64,000 nt of DNA from Balanoglossus misakiensis. Its lineage: Eukaryota; Animalia; Hemichordata. The DNA is taken from NCBI GenBank assembly GCA_040954595.2, contig CM082576.2, forward strand, positions 9,675,129 to 9,739,128, in the 5' to 3' direction. The notes beneath the pieces were generated by a model. The model searched no databases and was not told the DNA's origin. It worked only from the letters and a program-made list of their open reading frames with translations. Positions 795-51,300 of the stretch are shown piece after piece. Numbering within the stretch: the first letter of the stretch is position 1; every line of letters starts with the position of its first letter. The translations under genes were made by a program, and so were the position numbers.

Positions 795-3700
795 TCAGCG
801 ACAGAAATACTGAAACTGTGGTCCAGAGTCGACCCTCTGTCGTTTCCTCGCTTGCATGGTTTCAAAGAACTCGGCAATGTCTTCCTGTTTCACGACCTGC
901 AAGATTGACAACCAAAACAAAAACACACAAAGGGTTACACAATGACCCAGAAGCTTCTGCAAAATCATGCGAAGAATCTCAACACCCCATTTGGCTCTCC
1001 CACTAACCAATACCCCTCCCTCCCCATCGTTCAGCCCGTTCACAATGTGGAACCAAAGCCCCACTAACTAGGAAAGGTGTAGGTTACCATTTTTTTTTCA
1101 AAAACAAATTGCTACATACCCTTCCTTGCTGCGCAAATGACTGCAAGTAATTCTTCAGTTCTGTTTTCATGTCATTGTAACCTATAAAAGGAAAAATCAG
1201 AATAATCTTGACTTTCTGGCGAGCAACAAGTTTGATCAAATCAGGCATTCGTCATGGCAGATTTTAATAGATTTGAGCAGACTCTGACAACTTTCAACAA
1301 CGTCTCAACTTGACACACCACCTCCAGAGGCAAGAAATCTTAACACTTACCATGTAAGACTTCCACTTGTTGCACACGATCCATACCCGAGAAAACCCTC
1401 ATACCCTGTTCGTACTGGGACCCTGCAGCCTGGTTTGATTTGCCCTTCTCTTCGTAGAAACACACTGTGTCCGATTCCTCCAGCAGGAATGTGATGCACC
1501 TGTCTGTGTACATTTTCTGGGAGAGACAATGTGAAGTTAAAGTAGTGTCATTTGCGAGAATCGGTCCTGGCTGCACATTTCATTTGAAATTAATGCAAGA
1601 TAATGATTCACACTGATCTAACTGGGAAACGTACTTTGACAAAGATCATGATCTAAACTAATTTGACATCACAAATTTAACACACATGTACTTGGGACGT
1701 GATGACCAACTCAAAGACAGTCTTTGCTTAAGAAACTAAGATTCAAAGAGAAATCAACAAGAAACCTACCTGACAATTTGTACAAGTACACAATTTCTTC
1801 CTCCACCCTTGTGGCCAGAACGTTGCGTGATTCCCAACTTTGACGTCTCTCTTTCTCAGCTCCTCTAATTTACATACACTGGACCCCCTAGCACAGCCAT
1901 CTGCAGTTTGAGCTGAGGTACCAGCTTCTTGGTTGTTTTCTCCCGTCTTCTCTGACGATTCCGCGTTTTGAGTTGAGTCACCCGCCTCCCTGCTTGGCTT
2001 GTCACTCGTCTGTCCTGGTGAGCCAGCATTTTGGGATGCAGTGACAACCCCTTTCTCGGTTTTATCGTTAGTGTCCGTTTTTTTGTCAGCGACTGAGGAA
2101 TCAGTTGTTGTCTTCACGATACCATCGCCCTCATACTCAGACTGTTCCTGGTTGGCTTTGTTCCAATCTCCCTCCAACGTCTCTCTCCCATTGACACTGG
2201 GAGATGCATCTTCACCAAGAGCAGCCTCATTGCTATTCACCTGTGGGAAAATATCAATGTCAAATCAAAATCAGTACCATCCACCTAATCAATGTGCCAT
2301 GGATAACTGACCTTTTTAGGGCTGTGGGGGGGGGGGGGGGTATTCAATGTCTTTGCGTGATTGACAGAGACAATTTGCACATACATCAAAGTAACAGATA
2401 CAAGTGAAACAGACCTTTCACATAATATTTCATTAGCAATTCAACTTTTCACAGATTAATAGCCATATGTTCAGCAAACACTTCGAAGGCAATTAAAGTG
2501 ATAATGAACCGACAGTCCTGTGGGTCATAGGTGAAAGGTCAACCTACCTGTGCAGCCTCAGACTTCTCTTCCTTGGTGGCCGTGGCTTGTGACGTGCAGG
2601 GCAGGCTTCCACTCGCAGGCTCTGGAACACTTCCCACATCCACAGGAGCTGTTGTCTCTTCCTTGATCACTTTGGTCTGCATTGCATCGCTGGCCGAGTA
2701 TGCCCACAGGAAGTCGCACTTCTTCATGCAATCCTTGCAAATCATTTCTTGGTAGTCGAAGTGGTCTGGCGGTTGTGTGCCCAGATGCTGCGATAGAGAA
2801 CAACCTTGATAAGCGAGAACGTCCTCGCTAGAATCCCGCTTGACATGCAACTCTCAGTCAGTAATATTTTGTCCTTCCTGTACATTTAACTTGCTAAGTA
2901 TATTCATGTCTTCTTGTTGAATTTTACTACAATGTATTACAATGTACTATCAAATCTCTAGGAGGATGGATGGATGGTTAGGGGTAAATAATGTGGAACT
3001 GTCCTGCACTCCTTTGAACACAGAAAAATACCGTGCCTGTCTATGGGTACGTTCCAAAGATTTGAAAACACTGTAGAGTGTCCATGTACGTAGAGCAGAG
3101 GTCAGATGAGAAATGTACATTGACTGAACAAGTGAATAAATAATACTTACCCTGCCATGAAACCAGTCTTCACACAGAATGCACTGGATCATTTCATCTT
3201 CAGTCTGCAATAAACAATCAACGTGACAAAATTGGTCAAACCTGTAAATCAAATGGACCATGTCATCTCAAGAAAACTGAGTGAAATCCAATTTTGAAAA
3301 ATAAAAGCAAAGAAGAGCTTTCCCAATTTACTGTAATAACTTACATTTTTTTCTGGACTTTGTTAAGTTTGATAGCCGTGATCACAACCTCAGTAAGAAA
3401 ACATCATGCATTGTACTATAGTCAAGCATGGTCAACATAAACTGACTACACATGTATGCATTACTTACATCATCTTCCGGGTCAGGGTAAGGCCTGTTAC
3501 AGATACAATAGACTCCTCTGAAATTCTGGTTGTACTCATTATCGGCATTCACAGCTGCTTTGTTCTGAAGTATAGACAAGACCTAGAGTTCACACTGAAT
3601 ACAGATTCACAGTTCATTTGTTAAAGTTTTGCTGATGGAAGGGTTAATCGGGCCATTCAGACTGTGACGTTTCTGTCAATGAGACCGTATGCAGAGAAAT

Positions 3701-5360
3701 CTGTTCTACTGTTACTATGATCTGTTATACACTGTACATGCTTATTACTACTATTTCTCGAGAATTTTTTTTAGCAGACAGGCATAATCACTTTCTGGTC
3801 AAAGATGTATTTCAGGAGTAAGCTTGCATAACAGTGATGACACTCGCACGGTGTTACACAACTTAAGATCTTACAGTTTGTGATCATATTGATTACTCAC
3901 TGGGTAGAATTTACAAGTCAGGTTTGCAAACTTGCCATTTCCACAGTCACATCTGAAGTTTCTGTAAGGGAAGAAAGTAAAATTTACCATGGAGGAAAAC
4001 AAGTTTTATGAGAGTTCTTTTTCTGCAGAATAGTTTCATTTCAGATATTTTATGCATTGATGTGAAAAGCAGATTACATTTTGGGCCAAATGGGGATGAT
4101 ACATCAAACCTAAAATAATAGCCTACTGTACGTAAAGACAGTCGGTGGAAGGGTTACTCTCCAATGTAAACTGTAAAGACAGTCACTATCCAAATGAAAT
4201 ATTGGAACAAATAATATATGTTTTCCATTTCCCAATATTGGAAAAATAAGTTTATTCAAGACATACCATTCTGGCTAGTTTGTGTTCATTTCCCCTTATA
4301 TTTCAATACATCAAAACTGAAGCAAATAAGCAATCACGACACACATCAGATCTGCATTTATATCAGATCACGACCAGTATCAGTAAACAGACAATATGTT
4401 GAACTTCAGAGAAGATCAAAAAGATGATGATCATGTTGAATATCCATCACATAATTTATCAAATACTACTGTCAAGTGAGGCTACGAGATTTACATTTCT
4501 TGATAGGAATGTATGAACACTCAGCTGTCTTGTATACCTTTTAGTGTACATTTCCACTAACTCGTGGCCTTCGTGACAGTCGTAACTACACGCCAAACAT
4601 ATTCCAGCTGGTTCCATATCTGGTGTGATGCATGTTGTGCAGGCATACAAAGCCTGGCGCCCTACCATACCCTGTGACAGATAAAACACAAAACTTGCAT
4701 CAGTAACTGTATGTCTTTTAATTGACAATACTTTAATACTCTGAACATGGGTGTCTATGCCCCCCCCCCCTTTCCATACTCTGGTGATGCATCTATGGTG
4801 CATCATGCATCATTTCCAGAAAAACAATCAGTGTATTCATTACATCAACACACCATGCATGGTGTGTTGATGTAATGAATTAGCTGATTGTTATGCACCA
4901 TTCATTAGACGCCATCTTATTCTGGGGGGGGGGACTTCAATCATGCAGATACGTTTGCGTTTGGTACAGTATTTACACTGTTGTTTCCCTTATGTGCTTA
5001 ACAACCAGCTCGTGTCGTTTCGTATTATTATTTAGAAGCTGGGAACATTCGGGGAGGGGGACAGGAATTCCTGTTATATCACCCAGTCTTATTCGGAGTC
5101 CTACGAAACCCTACATTGTCATTAGCAACATCACAGCAAAGCACCCTCTAAAACAACGGTCAGATATCATTTGATCCAGTCTACTCATTAAAACGTAGGT
5201 TTGCTTTTCATACTTGACCGTAAGTACAGTATTTTTCGTCGCTGCCACCAAGCACGGCATTTGCTTCGTCTTCAAGAAACTGATCTTCCTCAAGAACATC
5301 CAACATAGAAACGCCTTCATCTTCCCCGCCACTGGCTACCACCTGCTTTCCTTCCGCCAT
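795..5360 (-). CDS. UBR7: UBR7, UBR-box zinc finger plus PHD-like finger putative E3 ubiquitin ligase, 10 coding exons, ~510 aa
   Basis: Exons in transcript order: 5360-5214, 4671-4538, 3961-3901, 3564-3469, 3204-3151, 2787-2548, 2240-1770, 1516-1351, 1181-1120, 896-795. All introns are GT-AG with consistent phases; total 1533 nt. The translation carries UBR7 hallmarks: SMLDVLEED..LEDEANAVLGGSD, RQALYACTTC..PAGICLACSYDCHEGHELVEMYTKRNFRCDCGN, NQNFRGVYCICNRPYPDPED, EMIQCILCEDWFHGRHLG, WRKKLCTC, DRVQQVE, and C-terminal EDIAEFF...QYFCR. Confidence 0.96.
4835..4880. repeat. Perfect 46-bp spacerless palindrome in UBR7 intron 1, within a larger imperfect fold-back
   Basis: ATTCATTACATCAACACACCATG|CATGGTGTGTTGATGTAATGAAT. 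Flanking arms AACAATCAG (4823-4831) and CTGATTGTT (4884-4892) are also complementary. Confidence 0.95.
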
Positions 5361-5685: not shown

Positions 5686-6566
5686 ATGTCGCAAAAGACA
5701 CCGTCGGATAGCCTCAAGAGACAGGGAGAGGAGCCAGAACAAGCAGATAAAAGCAAAAACAGGAAGAATGTGGTACGGTAACTCATGGCCCCATAGGTAA
5801 CTCTTTGCTGTGTACCTCGAGCATGGCAGTATAATTAACCTGCATAACTCTATCTGTTTTTGTTTTTTTTTTTAATTTTTCAACCACACCACACCAAGCT
5901 AGACAGTTCATCAAAGTCCACTGGTGTGTTATGCATTCCGACTTGGACCGGGAGAGGAGATAAGGAGTACTCTTTTGAAGTTTGTTGAGGACTACAAGTT
6001 AAGCGCCGCTTTTGTGATGACCTGCGTTGGAAGTGTTACCAAGGCAACCATTAGGCTGGCCAATGTTGATGCAGCAAGGAAAAATGAGGTAAACTTCACA
6101 GAAGTATCTGCATATACACATAAATACTACAACTTAAATAATACAGATAGCATTCTTGCAAGGGTATGATAGATCTGTGTGTGTTACCTGCATATTTTTA
6201 TGTGTGTAAAACAATTTCAAACAATTAGCATTGGTCAGTGTGGTCAGTCTTTCAGCATTAGAATGTGCATTTTTACCAAAGGGGGCTGCTACACTGAAGT
6301 CTACTCTGTTTCCATTTCAGATCGTCCAATTGAATGAGAGATTTGAGATTGTGTCTTTGGTTGGCACCTTATCCGACGGTGGGCACCTGCACATCAGTCT
6401 ATCTGATAAAAACGGGAAGACAGTTGGAGGCCATGTGGTGGGTGGATTGGAAGTGTTCACCACTGCCGAAATTGTGATTGGCCAGCTGAGCAACATGGTA
6501 TTTGAACGTGAAATGGATGATAGAACAGGGTTCAAGGAATTGGTCGTGAAAGCTTTAGACAACTGA
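5686..6566 (+). CDS. PPC/DUF296-domain protein (often auto-annotated 'bifunctional protein GlmU-like'), 3 exons, ~172 aa
   Basis: Exons 5686-5772, 5903-6088 and 6321-6566, all phase-0 GT-AG; exon 1 and its splice junction are the least certain. Motifs typical of PPC/DUF296: YAFRLGPGEEI, AAFVMTCVGSVTKATIRLA, FEIVSLVGTL, HLHISLSD..G..VGGHV, VFTTAEIV, D.RTGFKEL. Confidence 0.9.
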
Positions 6567-28600: not shown

Positions 28601-28833
28601 TGTTCTTAGGTCGGTGGTTCCAGAACTGTTATCGTAAACGGCGAGCGAGATTAATTTGGAAATGATAAGGGTTATGATTAATTTAGTTCTACCGTGTTTG
28701 TAAAATATTGTTATAAGTTGACTTGAAAGGGAAAAAAATCGATGATTCTTTCACATTTGCGTCTCAGTCCAAGAATAGATCATTATATTCTGTATGTGTT
28801 CTAATGTGAGCGTTTCAGAGAGAGGGGGGAGTG

Positions 28834-28836
<3 letters not shown>

Positions 28837-28905
<69 letters not shown>

Positions 28906-29070
28906 CTGAGACAGGCAGGCTAGGCAGGAAGGCAGGCAAACAGACAGACATAGACAGAGACACAGGAAGAGGCAGACAGATGGACGGACGGACAAATAGA
29001 TAGAGAGAGACACAGACAGAAACAGATACACGAAGAGAGGCAGATAAACTAAGACAGGGAGAACGTATAA
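28837..29070. repeat. (GA)n microsatellite (28837-28902) followed by a compound GACA/GGCA/GATA tract
   Basis: Directly visible. Confidence 0.95.
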
Positions 29071-30840
29071 AGAAGCAGGTACAGAGGAGTCTGCAAGTTT
29101 TTATATATCACATGTGTTCTACTTGTTTCTGAAGACCGGATATCGAGTTGTGTTCCAAATGACTTAATCAGAATTCACTACATTCTCAGGATAAAATGCT
29201 GACACCCGCCCCTTTCATCGACACGTTCTTCCGTTTCTTTTATCTGCTGATATCTTGACATTATCACTTTTGCCTCGTTTTTTATCTTTCCAAAAGAACC
29301 AGAGACGACAGAATGAGTTTTGTGTCTCGCGGGTGATGACTTCACCCTTACATTAACCTGGAGAGCTAACGGCGCGGACCATGTCGGCTCCCATCAGAGT
29401 CAAGACACTTCATAAAAATGTCCTTGTTGCGCCCTTTCATCTTTCATCAAGTCCCGCCAAACGATGCCGTTGTTGCACGTTCTCAAATGCTTCAAGATTT
29501 TCCCCAAAAACACGCGTATTATAAGTGCATAGTGCAGTGCGGGGCGACGTCAAAGTGGAGATTGTTATCATTTGACATAACGTTGTTTATAAGTTTCCTT
29601 CGACAGGAAAATGGTATTGGGGGGGGGGGGAATTCTGCTCGTCGAATCCAATTGATTAGCTGACGTGAACACCTGTGCATGTGATATATTTGAATCAATT
29701 TCGTTTTGCCACACAATCCATTGTGGTCACCTGACAATTTTATTTCCCACGTATATACGGGGCCAATATATCTATGTATTTTTGGTTTTGTGAACTTTTC
29801 TCGAGAAAAATAATACTATAACCCAGCTTTTTTGAAATAACTTTTTCATTTCTCGTGTCAACACATCCAGACACCGTCCCCTTAATTAGTTTCACCCTGA
29901 CCCCAACCCCCAAACCCACCTGATGATCCATGACGTCATTGGGGACGTTTCCTTTTGACGAGTTCAAAAAGATCAACCTTGAGATTCAGCTTTTCATCCT
30001 GCCCATCCACTGATGGCTTTTATCTCCTTTTTTCCGAATTCGTATTCATTTTTTTAATAGCTGGAGATTTACTGGTCCCATTGGCAATAAACACGTGTCC
30101 GTGATATATCGACACTTTGAATTTAATAGAAAACAAGGACGTTAATTGACGCGATTAATGTATTAACTAATTTATAGGTTTCTCCTTTTATTTCTAAATT
30201 CAATACAGTATTTTTTAACAAATGATTTATCCGCACATTATTCTATTATTGTCGCAGTTAAAGCTACAAATATGCTTCCGTGCGCGTAAAAACGGTGAAG
30301 TCCTATTTTTCTTCCGAAATGATAAGATTTTCCCCCGATAAAGTTAATCAAGGGAATTGTGATACAACCCCAGGACAAGAAAAACAATCACATCAAAACC
30401 GAAATGCATGCAGCCAGGCGTTCATGGATTGACTCGTCTACTATCATGTCACTCTATCCCCCCCCCCCTCCCCACATCTATAATGCCTTCCGGAAATGCG
30501 GTTTTTATAGAATAGAAATTTTGGAGAAGAAGAAAACACTGGATAATTGATTTTCATGACTCAAGGAGAAGTAAAATAAGCATGCCGTGTGCGTATCTCC
30601 GGTTCTTAAGACTTTTTTTTCTCTTCTCGGGGACGTTCTCAATTATTTATGTGCGTGTTGCGATTACAGTCCGGTGCATGCAGAGCCACCACAACTGAGT
30701 AAGGTAACACCATGTTAACATGAAAACCTGAAATTCTAAGTGCGAGATCGGGTCGCAGTTTAGCACGGGCCCAGGTTTCCACACATTTAACAAAAGAGTC
30801 TGATATAAATCTCAATCGTCATCATTGGGTGTTATATACT

Positions 30841-30995
30841 ACCTGTCTGTCTTTGTATGTTTCTGTATCTCTCATCCTGTCTCTCTGCCTCTCCGTCTCT
30901 GTCCCCTCTCCCTGTCTCTCTGTGTCTGACTCTGTTTGTCTGTCTCTGTCTCTCTGTATCTGTCTGTATGTCTGTCTGTCTGTCTCTCTCTCTCT

Positions 30996-31026
<31 letters not shown>
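30841..31026. repeat. Compound (CT)n/(TGTC)n low-complexity tract
   Basis: Directly visible; same repeat type as 28837-29070 in the opposite orientation. Confidence 0.9.
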
Positions 31027-34000
31027 AAGGAGGGAAGCCAATTTTAAGCATTACACTTCCCCTTTTTATTGACTCGGATTTACCATCATCCAAACCATTA
31101 GCAAATTCAACGTGTTCAAATGTATTTTAGTGTGATGTATACTTAATGAATGCCCTAACAACGTAACTAACAGAATGCAATGTACAACCAACAAATGTTA
31201 TTTGAGACAGGAAAGAAAAGCCACCGTGAGATATTCAGGGCGGGAAAACGTTCAATTAAATCAAGGCGACGTGACAACAACCTCCATTTATGTACAGTCG
31301 TAGATTTGAACACATATCGAGTGATTTGATATACGATTATGGGGTATGTGCTCGTCTGCATATGGTCACTTAGTAAGAGTTGGATTTTTGTTCATACCTT
31401 ATTTGCGTGAAATGATTCGAAACCTCATTATTATTAATGGATGAACGGTGGATTCGCGAGCATAATTCTAACAGTATTTCTGTCTTAATTTTCATCGTGC
31501 ACCATTCAGTCGTCACAGATGTCAACGCACTGAAAGGCGCGACTGGGTAAAACAAACAATAAAGTGTTCCCAATATTTCTTGAAATGATAAAGTCGAGCT
31601 TTCTCGTTCAATCACACAGGAGTGTATACGTGCATGTACGAGCCACGGCGTTCGCGACAGCTCAACAAAACCCGACCACGTGCCTGATCCAATTATCGAC
31701 CTGTTGGCAGTGAAACCAAATTAGACGCATGCGAGCTAGATCTATGGACCTTTTTCTCGTTTGCAAAGCAGACATTTTTTTTCTGTACACGAGTTGATAT
31801 CGAAATGGTTTTACGTAAGCCAGGGTTCTGATAAGTAAGCTTAATGTTCGAGAGGCTTTGGCAGTAATAACGCAACGCGCCTTTGTTCGTGGCAGCTCGA
31901 AAGTCCTTCAAATGTTGACACAGGAGAACTCTTGGGAGTGAAATACACCGAGGGACAGGTGGCCGAACTTTTTATTTGGCCTAAAATCTGACGACGTCGA
32001 GTAAAACGCGATTTTATTGTCAGGATTCATCCACGGGATGGCACTATAGTTGCTTGCCAACACCTGAGGCCTTAGACTTCTGCCCTCTGAGTAGAAATTA
32101 TAAAGGTCATGACGCATGCTCTGCATTGTTCATTTTTTAGCAATACCGGTGTCATCAGTGTCATGTCGTTTGGCAAACTGGAACTCGTGCGTAATGTGTT
32201 TGCGACTTTGACGGCGTCTTTATCTGGTCTAACCTCGGTCTACCGCTTCAAAGCCGAACCCAACTGCACGTTGTACATGTAAGCTAGTCAACACCATTAA
32301 TAAACGAAAAGGTTTTCGCCAAGCAAATCGAAAGTACACAATTTTTGTAGGCCCAGATAAAACGGGAGACGGAGATCAGTGACAAACGAGCGTCTCAGTA
32401 TCCAGGGAGTTTCGCGCCTTATTGCAAAGCGACACATTTGATCCGATCACGTCGGTTCAATCGTTTGAGTACGACAAATCGGCGCGAGCGGGATTTCCAA
32501 ATATCACGAATTCTAAACCCACTCTCAATTTTAAAAAAATCTCGCACAAGGTTAAAAAAAGTTGCTTGATAACTTTCAAATGTAAAGTACCAACGTCGTT
32601 TTACTGCCGCATGCAAAAATAGTTTTATTTCTTTATTCGTGCATTAAAAAACAGACGTTCATTTCCTACTGTTGAACTGCCAAACAGTTGGGTACAGACA
32701 AATTCTGAAAAAATTAGAACGAATCCTTCTCAAATGACGTGATATCATAATATACTGAAGTTCGGGATAGATTACTGAATGTGAAAGAAACCAGACTTTG
32801 AACGATCGTGGCATCCTGGGCATGTTTCAAATGTCGTCGATTTTTCCCCCCAAGGAGGAGTTCCTTGGGAACATTGAACATATGGTCAAAGTAAAATGAT
32901 ACAGAATCCTTATTGCTGCATGCAGCATATATAGAAGTGTCAGAGAATGCGTTTCTTTTTATCACCCCGACACAAAAGAAAATCCAAGCTATTTTTAAAT
33001 TAGATGTAAAGTCATGAGATCCAAATTGGCTGCACTGCCCCTGGAACGTGTATCGTATCACCGTCGTTTGTTCGCCGGCAACTGTGTTCAAGTCAACCAT
33101 CACGATAGTTTATCACCCATCATTGACTGCAACACGGTGTATTATTATTCTATAGCTGCCTCGGCTAAAAATAGTGTATTAGAGTTCAAAAGCTGTCGGC
33201 CTTCACAATGGCGTCGAGCGCCAGTGTGGAAACTCAGTCTTATTCATGTTTCACACATGCACTGTGCAACTTCGTGGTAGTGCCATCATGTGCGCCAGTC
33301 CCAAACCAGATCAGAGAAAGAGACGGTATACACGAGTCTTTGTCACAAGTAAACTCCCTAAACACGAACTCAGGGCGAGTATATCCAGCCTTGCATTCAA
33401 AACACCAATCACCTACGCAATCCTCGTAAAGTGGAATATCGTGGAGATTTCACCAAGACACTTACACTTCAGATTTTATCCCGCGGATCACATCGATGAA
33501 ATATTCCAGTGCAGTTTAAACATAACTTAACGCCGTGGGATCGTGGCTTTTGCCATCCATTTTTTAGTCGCGCGGGTAGCTAAATCCGAGACAACTTTCC
33601 AGAGTTTTACTTAAATAACTTCGCAAATAATTATAACATGGATACTAATCCCGTATCTACATGAGGAATATTGTGTCATCTCAGTTATACACAACGCGAA
33701 GTCGAATGGCAAGAAATGTCTGTTGACGTTTCATGATGTGGCGACACGTCAAAAGGCAAGAGATTATGCCCTCAAATGTCAAAATAAACTTTGGTTTCAA
33801 ATGTAGCCTGTACATCCCACTCACATTTTCGTTCACTTTTACAAGGACGTGTTTGCAACATGACGCGATGGCTATGTTCTCACCTGAACAGACAAATCCA
33901 TCTTAGAAGTACCCTGGGGCTTGATATCACAGACCCGTCCGTAACTCTTGTTTTGAAAATCGTGTCATTTTTCCGGGGTTTAACTAGTTTTCATATAATT

Positions 34001-35290: not shown

Positions 35291-35494
35291 TATAAAAGCG
35301 GGCAAAGAGGTGACCACTGGTTATGCCGTTTGTAGCAACAGTGGAGCGAACAAGTTGAAAATATTCTGTAGGTGAGTGGGTTTGGGATCAATGAGTGGCA
35401 CGCCCGAGCGTTCTGTGCTTGACTGAGCAAGTGCTTTTAAATTTGTATCTTGTAAGGGACCAGGGTATTTAATTATATTTCCTTGTCATTTCAG
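35291..35494 (+). promoter_or_regulatory. TATA box, short non-coding first exon and 5'-UTR intron of peptide precursor gene A
   Basis: TATAAAAG at 35291-35298. Donor TAG|GTGAGT at 35372 and acceptor TTTCCTTGTCATTTCAG ending at 35494, 44 nt before the ATG. A G-rich tract at 35185-35212 and a half-CRE TGACG at ~35171 lie upstream. Confidence 0.6.
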
Positions 35495-35538: not shown

Positions 35539-36192
35539 ATGATGTCCATAGGCCAGAAGATGGGCGTCTGGTTCGTAGCGCTGTGTTTGATAGTTTTATG
35601 CGATGGACCTGTAGGTGGCGTCAGGCCGATCACGGCGTTTCCACCGGGCCGCTGTCTGCCCAACCAGCCGTACAACCCGTTCTGCAGACTCCTCGACCTG
35701 GAAACCCAGGAGGAAGCGGCGTCGAATGTGGCCAAACGGACTAGGTGCATGCCGGGGATGGAGTTCAGTTTCTACTGCAAGATAGGCAAACGGGCATCCG
35801 GTGTGACGGGCGGGGAAGGCGAGGAGGCGGCGGCGGCCGGGAGGAACCCGCAGCCCAAGAGGGTGTCCCTCGACATCGCCGACTGTTCGATCGGACCCGA
35901 CGGCGAGGTCGACCCCGTCTGCGAGAAGCGGCGAAAGCGGATGCTTCAGCGGAGAGGTGTCGGCAGCCACTGCATCCCCGGCAGCGAATTCAGTTTCTAC
36001 TGCCGCTTCAGAAAAGCAGACGATTATTTTTCCCAGTTGGCAGAGGCGAATCTTGTCGAGGCGAACGACGGCGTTGAAGACGACACGGCGGCGACAGGTG
36101 AGAACACTGGCAGAGATGACCGATTACTGAGGAACGAAATAAGAAGTAAGCCTTTAATAGAACAAGTTGCAGTAGTTCATAGGAATAGATAG
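35539..36192 (+). CDS. Secreted prepropeptide A: multi-peptide precursor with four two-cysteine rings, neuropeptide/hormone-like, family not recognised
   Basis: 217-aa ORF from the first ATG, GC-rich relative to its flanks. Hydrophobic N-terminus (KMGVWFVALCLIVLCDG), KR/RR/KRRKR/RK sites and acidic spacers. Rings: CLPNQPYNPFC, CMPGMEFSFYC (followed by KI-G-KR, an amidation signal), CSIGPDGEVDPVC, CIPGSEFSFYC. The C-terminus may differ if the donor at 36098 is used. Confidence 0.85.
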   Translation: MMSIGQKMGVWFVALCLIVLCDGPVGGVRPITAFPPGRCLPNQPYNPFCRLLDLETQEEAASNVAKRTRCMPGMEFSFYCKIGKRASGVTGGEGEEAAAAGRNPQPKRVSLDIADCSIGPDGEVDPVCEKRRKRMLQRRGVGSHCIPGSEFSFYCRFRKADDYFSQLAEANLVEANDGVEDDTAATGENTGRDDRLLRNEIRSKPLIEQVAVVHRNR

Positions 36193-37484: not shown

Positions 37485-37543
37485 GGATTATGCTTAATCA
37501 GTTGAATCAAGAGTAAATGGCCAGTTTATATCTTTGTAGAAAG
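37485..37543 (+). other. Candidate 59-nt internal exon (alternative 3' end of precursor A, or UTR exon of precursor B)
   Basis: Branch-like CTAAT (~37458), acceptor TCTCATTCTTTGCAG|G and a consensus donor AAG|GTAAGT at 37544. Confidence 0.4.
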
Positions 37544-44219: not shown

Positions 44220-44648
44220 ATGTCGGCGAGACAGGCTTATTTCTGCGCTTTCGGGGTTCTCGTCTTTTGCCAAATTTTGGGAATGGGCTACACGTATGAA
44301 CTTAGAGACGTCATTCTCGGCTCGCCCTGTCGACGCGGGCGCGAGACGAGCGAATATTGCCGGCGACTGCTAACGCCGCAGTCGTATGTCACGACGACGG
44401 GGACCGAGGATTCTAGTTGGCGGGAGTTGGCGACAGCGTTAGCTGATGTACTGCTCGGGTCCTTCTGTACTCCGGGGCACGGTGATATGAACCGATACTG
44501 CAGAGAGCGGCTGATTCGGGGCGCAGAGTCGCCCGCATCAATCGAGAAACGTCGGTGTATACCCGGTATGGAATTTAGCCACTTCTGCAAAGGAAGTTCG
44601 TGGTTACAACGCAGCGGTCATTCATATTTTCCAAGTCCTGCACGGTAA
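44220..44648 (+). CDS. Secreted prepropeptide B, paralog of A, with three two-cysteine rings
   Basis: 142-aa ORF with a signal-peptide-like N-terminus (MSARQAYFCAFGVLVFCQILGMGYT). Rings: CRRGRETSEYC, CTPGHGDMNRYC and KRR-CIPGMEFSHFC-K. The last ring matches RCMPGMEFSFYCK of precursor A at 10 of 13 residues. The stop codon lies inside a donor-like CG|GTAAGA. Confidence 0.8.
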   Translation: MSARQAYFCAFGVLVFCQILGMGYTYELRDVILGSPCRRGRETSEYCRRLLTPQSYVTTTGTEDSSWRELATALADVLLGSFCTPGHGDMNRYCRERLIRGAESPASIEKRRCIPGMEFSHFCKGSSWLQRSGHSYFPSPAR

Positions 44649-48313: not shown

Positions 48314-51300
48314 ATGGCGAGTACGGTTGCCAAGTTTGCGGTATACAACATCAATAATGAAGATTTCTTGAGCACAAGAAACATTTCAAAAAGTATGGAA
48401 GAAGATGTTGTGCTGGAGCAGCTTTCTGATGACAGATTTCAACAGAGATCGGAAATCCTCGATTACCTTAGGACGGAAGTTCGCAAACATGGCGGTAGGA
48501 TACAATTTCAAAACATGTCGGCGTTGTTCAGGGGTCTGTCAAGAGCCCTGGCAGACTCGAACTGGACTGTCAGACACCACTGCGTCCAGCTTATATCAGA
48601 GATGATAGCGGGTCTCGATGATGATCTCGACACGTACATGTCGACAGTCCTCCCCAAATTGGTAGCTAATATTGGAGACAACAAAGTAGCTCTTCGCAAA
48701 GCTGTCATCCAAACATTACACCTGTACATGAAGCATTCCAGTGACGTCCAGAATGTTTTCCACGCCATCGTAGAACACGGTTTGGAGAGTCCGGATCCCA
48801 AAGTTAGAGCCGAAACCACCATCAATTTCCCTCTGTTGCTGACCGCAGAATTCGCGAAACAAGACTTATTTACAATAACGCAGGCCTTGGCCAAAAGACT
48901 GAACGGCAGCGCGGAAAATGAAGAAAACAAGATAGCAATCATATCGCTGGAGAGGATCCGGGGGCTGGTAGGAAACGAGGTATTTGTCGGCTATGTGCAG
49001 AGATTGTCCAAACCCGTCAAACAGGTGTACCTACAGCTGACCGACAGGGATGAAAACGGCTACGACGGACCGGTCGATGTGAACTTAAACAGCAGCAAAG
49101 GTGTCCTGGGAAGTGGCACGTGGAAACGTAGCCACAGCCGCGACAGCGACACTGTTGGAAGGGGTCTTGAGTTCGGTATCATACCCAAACACATTATGGA
49201 TCAGTTATTGGATCAACATGATTTACGAGTCAGGGCCCAAGGCATCGAAGGTCTGCGTGAAATTATGAACGACATGGCAGACCTGGCACCACTCCTGCCT
49301 CATATATTGGCATTCATCAGTTTCCTCTGTAATTTACTGGATGATGTGAACTTCAAAGTTACCACTGTAACATTAGATATATTCGATAAACTGGTCAATA
49401 AATTAGGACAAGGAGTTAAACCATACCTCAAGTCGCTGATGAGCGCCCTGACGAAACGACTCGGTGACAACCAAATAGTTATCCGTCAAGCCAACATGAA
49501 AGTTCTCATGCACTTGATGCAGATTCTCACACCCAAACCAATCTTGAACCAACTAACTGATAGTTTGCAGCATCGGAACTCGCGAGTTCGAGAGGAGGCC
49601 CTGAACATGGTCATAGCGTCGCTGCTCACGTTCCCCAGCTACGACTTTGATCTCGGACAGTTGTGTCAAACGATCGCACACACGCTGGTGGACCCCAAGA
49701 GGAAGGTGCGACAGGCCTCCCTGGAAGCGTTCGCTGTCCTGGCCCAAGCGATGGGCCCCGGCAGGCTCCAGCCGCTGGTGTCGGCGGTGGACAGCGTGGA
49801 ACTCAGCATGGAAGGCGACGGCGTCATGGCAGCGGTGCAGGCACGGCTGGCCAGGCGACAACTCCCGAGACTGAATAAAGACGGTCTCGTCGAATACTCA
49901 ATCCCCCTACCGGCTTCGGCCACCACGAGAGGATCTCCCCCGAGCGCCGACATCGAGTGGATCATGGCGGCTGCAGGCGGCGGAACGAGCAGTGCCCGGG
50001 AGAGGAATCACAGCGAGCCGCAGCGCGAACTCTCTCAGCCCATGTCGGCCAGGTCTGCGTCGGGACAACACGAGAACGCCGGGCCCACTCCGGCTCCCAG
50101 GCGATACCATAGTGCCGGAAAGAACAGGAAGAAATTGCCTTGGGAAGAGCTGCCGAATGAAGATGATGGTGTAGAATTGGAGAAATTGGAGAACTCAAAT
50201 CAAAGAAACCACCCCAATAGTGCACCGTCACACGTAAGTACAAAAATAGAAATAAACATACATGTACATGTATATGTACATGTACATGTATGAACACCAC
50301 AACATTTATATTTTAGATTTTAATTTTTCTACCCTCTTTGCCTAATAAACCCTTTTAAGTCAAATAATAGTAAAAAATGTTGAATAACAATAGAACTCAT
50401 TGTTTTAGTTATAAATAATAATCTTGATCTGAATTTTGATAACAAAAAGGTGAAATTAAACTAAAATGTCAGAAAAAATTCATTCTTTAGAAGGGAACTA
50501 CATGTATAATCTTCTTAAAATGAAATTGCAAAATTAAATAAAAACAAACAGTGACTGAAAAGACACAGCAGTGGAAATTGTTTCCGTTGTTCTGCAATGG
50601 ATCATTTTACAACTGCAAAAAGTAATTCCTGTGGCCAGAAATTTATAAGTGTCACCCCAAAGAAAAAGTTGTAAGAAAAAAAAGGTCTCTGGAATTAAGA
50701 AATCATGCCGTTGTCATCAGTAGATTTTTATACAATGTCCATGTACATGTAGGTCACTTGCACCCAACAAGTGTCATTTTGTATGCCTCTGGAATGGAGG
50801 ACAGGTTGAATGACCATTGATCGTTACGTCACAGAGAATAATGCATTACTCTAATGGAACCTAGATGAATTGCTGAATAGAAGTACCGGCGATCAATTTT
50901 TTTCCCTCTGCGTACATGTCTAATGCCCGCAGCCGTGTATGGCTGAGGCAGGCAGCCTGCGTCATCACCAATCAATGAGGCCTTGACTGCGCCCCGCAAA
51001 GAGTTGAATGCCGGTCAGTTTAAAAAGTTGAAAATATGATGGTGGCGCGGAAAATTTGGTGCGGGGAGAGCGATTTGCGGGTTCTCTTCACTGTTGACAC
51101 TGGTTTGAATTATTGATGAGATTTTGGCAAGTTGATGCCCAGCTCAGTCATGCAGATCAATAAGTTGGGAGTGAGCGTCCGCCAACAGTTGGCTATAGAT
51201 AGGTAACCCCATTAATATTTGATGTTGACCGATCGGATGTCGGGGCCACCTTTTGAGTCTTTGACACTACGACATGTAGAGGCCCTTCCTGTCCGCACAT

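Follow-up and report, generated by a model that had tools for sequence, protein, structure and literature searches.

The window, by which we mean the whole stretch of 64,000 nucleotides from Balanoglossus misakiensis that was analysed, contains on its forward strand a gene (gene 1) whose product is probably an acorn-worm precursor of disulfide-ring neuropeptides or hormones, with predicted secretion and proteolytic cleavage. As judged from the sequence, with moderate confidence, the second of its four rings (ring B) is the likely amidated product in this species, TRCMPGMEFSFYCKI-amide. The family of the precursor appears to be undescribed, and multi-copy prohormones with cyclic peptides are a well-known kind. 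That the gene is real is supported by orthologues in three other acorn worms, which is stronger evidence than the shuffling experiments described below.

Gene 1 has the structure of a multi-ring peptide precursor

The following features were assigned to gene 1:
35291..35297, forward strand: TATA-like box (TATAAAA) identified by sequence, 5' of the putative non-coding first exon; promoter function presumed
35320..35371, forward strand: putative 5' non-coding exon called from consensus, start approximate, donor GT at 35372
35539..36145, forward strand: main coding exon with acceptor AG at 35493-35494, start codon ATG at 35539 and two alternative donors (36098, 36146)
35539..35619, forward strand: predicted signal peptide, approximately residues 1-27, with the cleavage site placed by eye
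35653..35685, forward strand: ring A, CLPNQPYNPFC, spacing C-x9-C (C39-C49), poorly conserved and without flanking dibasic sites
35734..35793, forward strand: ring B cassette, comprising KR (35734-35739), TRCMPGMEFSFYCKI (35740-35784), Gly (35785-35787) and KR (35788-35793); C70-C80
35884..35922, forward strand: ring C, CSIGPDGEVDPVC, spacing C-x11-C (C116-C128), acidic and followed by the basic cluster KRRKR
35950..36015, forward strand: ring D cassette, comprising RR (35950-35955), GVGSHCIPGSEFSFYCRF (35956-36009) and RK (36010-36015), without Gly; C145-C155
37485..37516, forward strand: terminal coding exon, phase 1, nine codons reading IMLNQLNQE and then a stop

The raw open reading frame starting at ATG 35539 comprises 217 codons and contains both the 15-mer under study and its sister copy. 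The initial annotation had described the former as KR-TRCMPGMEFSFYCKI-G-KR, and this is what we found: positions 35740-35793 translate as TRCMPGMEFSFYCKIGKR, and the upstream KR (35734-35739) lies just outside that interval. Its description of a sister copy, GVGSHCIPGSEFSFYCRF between RR and RK and lacking the Gly, was likewise borne out in the window, as was its view of a convertase/carboxypeptidase E/PAM-type cassette, which lies in a precursor-like gene; no other ring in the window has a Gly-dibasic signal. The predicted monoisotopic mass of the amidated cyclic 15-mer in its oxidised form is 1808.79, against 1866.79 for the Gly-extended form and 1989.85 for ring D as a free acid.

The 15 codons at the end of the raw reading frame are likely intronic, since the splice model agrees with the Ptychodera flava isoforms: joining the donors at 36098 and 36146 to the nine-codon exon at 37485 predicts products of 196 and 212 amino acids, the P. 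flava isoforms have 195 and 211, and both junctions in the window agree with P. flava X2 and X1. The exon at 37485 scored highest against the P. flava tail (29, the next being 17) and is preceded by a pyrimidine-rich acceptor; a similar C-terminal tail is present in the long isoform of Glandiceps. Use of one or the other donor takes 16 C-terminal spacer residues in or out, an alternative that is also annotated in P. flava and is therefore conserved, although it lies outside the peptides. Hydropathy analysis (Kyte-Doolittle, 11-residue) gave a peak of 3.15 at residue 10 and a maximum of 1.12 past residue 40, so that by this measure the product has a single, N-terminal hydrophobic segment and no other. 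AlphaFold2 returned no confident fold for the precursor (mean pLDDT 50.2, pTM 0.18).

When the mature precursor was shuffled 20,000 times, the pattern of a dibasic site, Cys ring, Gly and dibasic site arose 32 times and two dibasic-flanked rings never arose, and of the 2,801 segments obtained by translating the window in six frames, 1 matched the amidated pattern; all of these patterns were defined after the sequence had been seen.

In the classical pathway PC1/3 or PC2 cuts at KR or RR, carboxypeptidase E trims the exposed basic residues and PAM converts a terminal Gly to an amide. Applied to gene 1, removal of the signal peptide by signal peptidase would be followed by PC1/3 or PC2 cleavage at KR/RR and carboxypeptidase E trimming, after which PAM would generate TRCMPGMEFSFYCKI-amide with a Cys3-Cys13 bridge; ring D would be released as a free acid in the window species. 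By analogy with other cyclic neuropeptides, the target is likely to be a rhodopsin-type peptide GPCR. In Saccoglossus kowalevskii, neural territories express both PC2 and PAM, according to the part of PMC10508912 considered here.

Homologues in other acorn worms

Orthologues of gene 1 were found in P. flava (XP_070578400-406, 54% identity), Glandiceps talaboti (LOC144453778, 34%) and Saccoglossus kowalevskii (LOC100379065, 34%), species that fall in the families Ptychoderidae, Spengelidae and Harrimaniidae, respectively, P. flava being the closest to the window species. Together with a further P. flava protein, XP_070578407.1, these acorn-worm homologues are all annotated as 'uncharacterized'. 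They resemble the window gene in ring order and flanks and, in P. flava and Glandiceps, in the short terminal exon, but differ from it in that ring D has the Gly-dibasic signal and ring B contains a Trp, whereas in the window the signal is at ring B.

A first search, with 720 candidates, had yielded a single P. flava protein, and a profile search of 1,835,955,588 representatives gave four matches at E up to 0.001, all from acorn worms. An alignment search of 4,917 candidates recovered two P. flava proteins and nothing outside acorn worms, and it failed to recover the Glandiceps and Saccoglossus sequences included among its own queries. The blank outside acorn worms is therefore weak, because this word-based search overlooked two of its own query proteins and short divergent peptides are hard to detect. 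No match was obtained with the paralogue described below as sole query (26 candidates), for the precursor and six homologues in Pfam above the cut-off, or among PDB sequences apart from one chance match (E 1.2); of 90 pattern matches in metagenome contigs, 0 were confirmed. In the Atlas, all ten of the feature rows shown were neuropeptide or hormone precursors (0.81-0.84), which we take as a lead only, as all matches fell below the bar of 0.9 and the recognition score was low (1373). A Saccoglossus fragment spanning rings C and D gave no usable match when used as Atlas query.

Conservation of the rings and of their C-terminal signals

Across the four orthologues, 6 of 11 columns are invariant in ring B and 6 of 11 in ring D, compared with 0/11, 2/20, 0/35, 3/16 and 2/43 in the flanking and spacer segments. 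This conservation of two rings amid variable spacers is the pattern of a prohormone. The ring consensus is C-[IM]-P-G-x-E-x-[SN]-x-x-C, and ring A of Saccoglossus is also of the CIPG type, suggesting that all rings derive from one ancestral repeat. In all four species the residue directly before the first Cys of ring B is an Arg, which is therefore likely retained in the peptide. Ring C has an Asp before its first Cys and a Pro at -2 in 4/4 species. The residue before the last Cys of ring B is Trp in the three orthologues and Tyr in the window. Ring D of Glandiceps and that of Saccoglossus, which belong to different families, have FGNRCIPG-x-EFN-x-FCRG-[KR]K in common, and in Saccoglossus the Gln that follows the Arg upstream of ring D could yield a pyroglutamate N-terminus.

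The C-terminal processing signals are distributed differently. Following ring B, the window has KI-G-KR, P. flava KA-G-R, Saccoglossus RY-G-R and Glandiceps RS-RR without Gly, so the conservation of GKR in orthologues, which the initial annotation had put forward as a check of its peptide, was not observed: G-KR follows ring B in none of the three (G-R in two, no Gly in one). The KR upstream of the ring fared better, being kept in two orthologues and absent from the third. Following ring D, the three orthologues have R-G-KK, R-G-KK and R-G-RK, and RF-RK occurs in the window only. The proposal that the sister copy is non-amidated thus agrees with the missing Gly in this species but does not extend to the orthologues, in all three of which the same position reads C-R-G-[KR]K. 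Over all 22 rings, 4 carry a Gly-dibasic signal, 2 a Gly-Arg signal and 16 none, and each gene 1 has exactly one Gly-dibasic ring (4/4 species).

These counts bear on an alternative in which the precursor is of the same signalling kind but the ring itself is active and amidation dispensable, the G-KR at ring B being a lineage-specific detail and rings B and D and the ring of the paralogue roughly equal ligands. The equal conservation of rings B and D would fit this alternative, as would C-terminal signals that vary freely (Gly-dibasic in 4/22, Gly-Arg in 2/22 and none in 16/22) and a last paralogue ring that lacks an amidation signal in 2/2 species. The retention of one Gly-dibasic ring per gene 1 in 4/4 species, however, argues against it, as does the fact that in the two closest species the Gly-dibasic ring has the same sequence, and we consider dispensable amidation unlikely, if worth keeping in mind.

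The amidated ring may have changed position

Ring B of the window, CMPGMEFSFYC, is identical over 11/11 residues to the Gly-dibasic ring D of P. flava, the only identical pair among 28, and the flanks make the positional orthology of the rings clear. In column permutations, which ignore relatedness, an identical pair of any rings was obtained in 1,695 of 100,000 cases and this particular pair in 57 of 100,000. At the DNA level, rings B and D of the window agree in their final five codons (P ~0.04, a value based on few codons), and three synonymous differences between them fall in the first half.

We infer from these comparisons that the ancestral amidated product was ring D, with the ending C-R-amide, and that in the lineage of the window species ring B may have acquired a D-type sequence together with a dibasic amidation site, after which ring D would have lost its Gly. 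The change in ring B may have come about by partial gene conversion between repeats or by convergence; convergence accounts for the identity as well as gene conversion does. Ring B of P. flava and Saccoglossus could also be amidated via its single-Arg site, which would weaken the picture of a hand-over.

On present sequence comparisons the family-wide amidated product is likely to be ring D, and the 15-mer amide is a sound candidate ligand in the window species. The initial annotation had singled out the 15-mer as the most likely bioactive ligand at the locus. This assessment gains from the 11/11 identity of ring B to the Gly-dibasic ring D of P. flava, whereas the equal conservation of rings B and D and the missing amidation signal of the paralogue's ring make the rank of most likely ligand a tentative one. 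Because the amidated ligand has likely moved between repeat positions, the 15-mer stays a good candidate in this species.

A hand-over would not be needed if the missing Gly after ring D were an assembly error or a rare allele and ring D were amidated here too. The RF-RK sequence comes from one assembly, unreplicated, and all three orthologues have the Gly; against this, a change from Gly to Phe (TTC) requires substitutions at two bases without any shift of the frame, the sequence is free of any N, and ring B of the window has independently gained D-type residues and a dibasic site, which makes an error or rare allele extremely improbable.

A tandem paralogue lies downstream of gene 1

A profile of the rings run over the window matched just two open reading frames, that of gene 1 and that of a second gene:
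44220..44648, forward strand: gene 2, tandem paralogue with a hydrophobic N-terminus and three rings, 8 kb downstream of gene 1
44328-44360, 44466-44501 and 44556-44588, forward strand: rings of gene 2, the last being KR-RCIPGMEFSHFCK-GSS, without amidation signal

Gene 2 shows 41% identity to P. flava XP_070578407.1, an accession that directly follows those of gene 1, suggesting a conserved tandem pair. Its last ring is identical to ring B of the window at 8 of 11 residues. In both species with the paralogue (2/2), C-K-G is retained at the end of this ring with no basic residue after it, and the Gly may therefore belong to the peptide instead of serving just as amide donor. The gene 2 reading frame ends 31-38 residues before the end of its P. 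flava counterpart, at a good match to a splice donor (44645-44648); the stretch from there to 48300 yielded no matching exon.

The repeats and the duplicated gene could also point to a different role, namely a product of epidermal gland cells or gametes in which defensive, antimicrobial or pheromone-like cyclic peptides carry the same processing signals. Secreted defensive peptides likewise use dibasic and amidation signals, and in the searches run the family was found in acorn worms only. Typical antimicrobial peptides are, however, cationic, unlike rings B and D, which have an invariant Glu and no basic residue within the ring; these rings are moreover conserved over three families, and with just two genes in the window, as in the P. 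flava set, there is no sign of fast expansion. A defensive or pheromone-like role is accordingly very unlikely, and a precursor of neuropeptides or hormones remains the preferred reading.

Comparison with known peptide families

Among known families, elevenin (L11), a peptide described from protostomes (PMC11004728, PMC13311285, in the parts considered), offers the most useful lead, through a weak similarity of motifs. Elevenin-like receptors are treated as bilaterian in PMC5818035, as far as this source was covered, and the covered part of PMC10175484 gives predicted elevenin-like receptors for Saccoglossus and Branchiostoma and no predicted precursor. The family described here could therefore be thought of as a divergent, multi-copy deuterostome relative of elevenin that provides the ligand of these orphan acorn-worm receptors, a possibility partly compatible with our preferred explanation. 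Elevenin and the present peptides were compared by eye and by motif counts. Both have one disulfide ring and an aromatic residue at -4, and the elevenin-like features C-R-G and D-C with P-x-C are found after the D rings and in the C rings, respectively. In the elevenin table of PMC10175484 (44 rows, from the part consulted), C-R-G occurs in 42 rows; counting by eye gives 43 rows with F/Y at -4, 38 with P at -2 and 42 in which D/N precedes the first Cys. In acorn worms F stands at -4 in 4/4 D rings, D before the Cys and P at -2 occur together in 4/4 C rings, and C-[RK]-G is present in 6/22 rings, where a dibasic site comes next in three (so that the Gly would be consumed) and not in the other three. 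Ring A of the window also has P-Y-N-P-x-C-R in common with two ant elevenins.

Against membership, elevenins as given in the sources consulted are all C-x8-C, single-copy and non-amidated with the Gly kept, whereas here rings B and D have the spacing x9, are multi-copy and are expected to be amidated. The x8 spacing occurs in 0 of the 22 rings (x6, x9, x10 and x11 were seen), and one peptide per elevenin precursor contrasts with four rings in gene 1 and three in gene 2. The hallmarks are scattered over different rings (D/N in 4/22, F/Y in 9/22, P in 5/22), with all three combined in none, and the PYNP of ring A is absent from the three orthologues. Amidation of ring D would moreover consume the Gly, the residue that mattered most for activation of the Aplysia elevenin receptor (PMC10175484, in the part consulted), and the Atlas rows shown include no elevenin cluster. 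Elevenin membership was rejected on spacing, copy number and the failure of the hallmarks to combine in one ring. A divergent relationship, too, is quite unlikely, and it is just as doubtful that the two genes encode the missing deuterostome elevenin-type ligands, with the amidated ligand moved from the fourth to the second repeat in this lineage.

Other families share fewer features. Somatostatin/allatostatin-C peptides, for example starfish SS1 (KCIGRFQPFSMPC), are likewise cyclic after a basic site and resemble the present rings in a C-I start and F-S at -4/-3. In the parts of PMC8851493 and PMC7536072 considered, this family is characterized by a single C-terminal peptide, an FxP or FWK motif and an N-terminal phase-0 intron. 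It was rejected on position (the peptides here are multi-copy, with ~40-55 residues after ring D), on motif (FxP/FWK in 0/8 B and D rings) and on intron (coding is uninterrupted to residue 186, and the single intron identified within the coding sequence is in phase 1). MCH-type peptides are similar in the Met or Ile after the first Cys, which is present in 8/8 B and D rings, and Saccoglossus has its own, separate MCH-type precursor (both from the part of PMC4772807 considered); this type was rejected, as position -2 is aromatic and not basic in 8/8 B and D rings and the peptide is not a single C-terminal one. CCHamide and excitatory peptide are also cyclic and amidated but, unlike the present peptides, single-copy and located at or near the signal peptide (PMC5627052, in the part considered), and neither a His-amide nor a GGN ending is found here. 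CCHamide was rejected because ring A, the ring nearest the signal peptide, lacks an amidation signal in 4/4 species.

No matching family was found in the parts of PMC9793003, PMC12002301, PMC6188537 and bioRxiv 10.1101/2022.10.30.514428 that were covered, and the motifs and accessions searched for are absent from the supplements of PMC6188537 and PMC10508912. Literature searches by ring motif, accession and topic, which cannot reach figures and have most subscription papers outside their scope, found no description. The predicted Saccoglossus precursor lists in two 2013 PNAS surveys of bilaterian neuropeptides might include the gene.

Genomic neighbourhood

Downstream of the paralogue, a large exon (48314-50290, forward strand), with further likely exons to the end of the window, belongs to a FAM179B/TOGARAM1-like TOG-domain gene (E 8.6e-72 to PDB 5dn7; TOG/HEAT Pfam matches); located 3.7 kb past the paralogue, this gene provides a synteny marker for the peptide genes. 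On the other side, a UBR-box zinc finger exon (4462-4809, reverse strand; PF02207, E 3.7e-08) is accompanied by what is presumably a further exon resembling UBR7 (1743-2264, reverse strand), without Pfam match. A short way past the UBR-box exon and in the opposite orientation, two exons (5903-6563, forward strand) encode a PCC/PPC-domain protein (PF03479, 'plants and prokaryotes conserved', E 3.1e-11 and 1.1e-17), with an apparent intron between them in an animal genome. The UBR-box exon and the two PCC/PPC exons were the 3 segments with a Pfam match among 238 stop-to-stop segments of at least 55 amino acids in 1-35000. No Pfam match at E 0.001 was found in 6600-35000, the ~28 kb upstream of gene 1, a search that shorter exons would escape. 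Long CT/GA microsatellite-like tracts at ~28750-29100 and 30720-31050 give rise to spurious low-complexity reading frames.

Biological significance

Hemichordates, which occupy a place between echinoderms and chordates, possess peptide receptors without known ligand, the elevenin-like receptors being one case stated in the part of PMC10175484 consulted. A conserved, undescribed precursor supplies a short list of synthesisable peptides for screening on such receptors. The amidation signal is located on different repeats depending on the species, which makes calling a ligand from one genome risky. At the same time, the ring that carries the signal is identical in the two closest species, a small natural experiment on the redistribution of function within multi-copy precursors. 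Should the receptor turn out to be of the elevenin type, the elevenin system would extend to deuterostome ligands.
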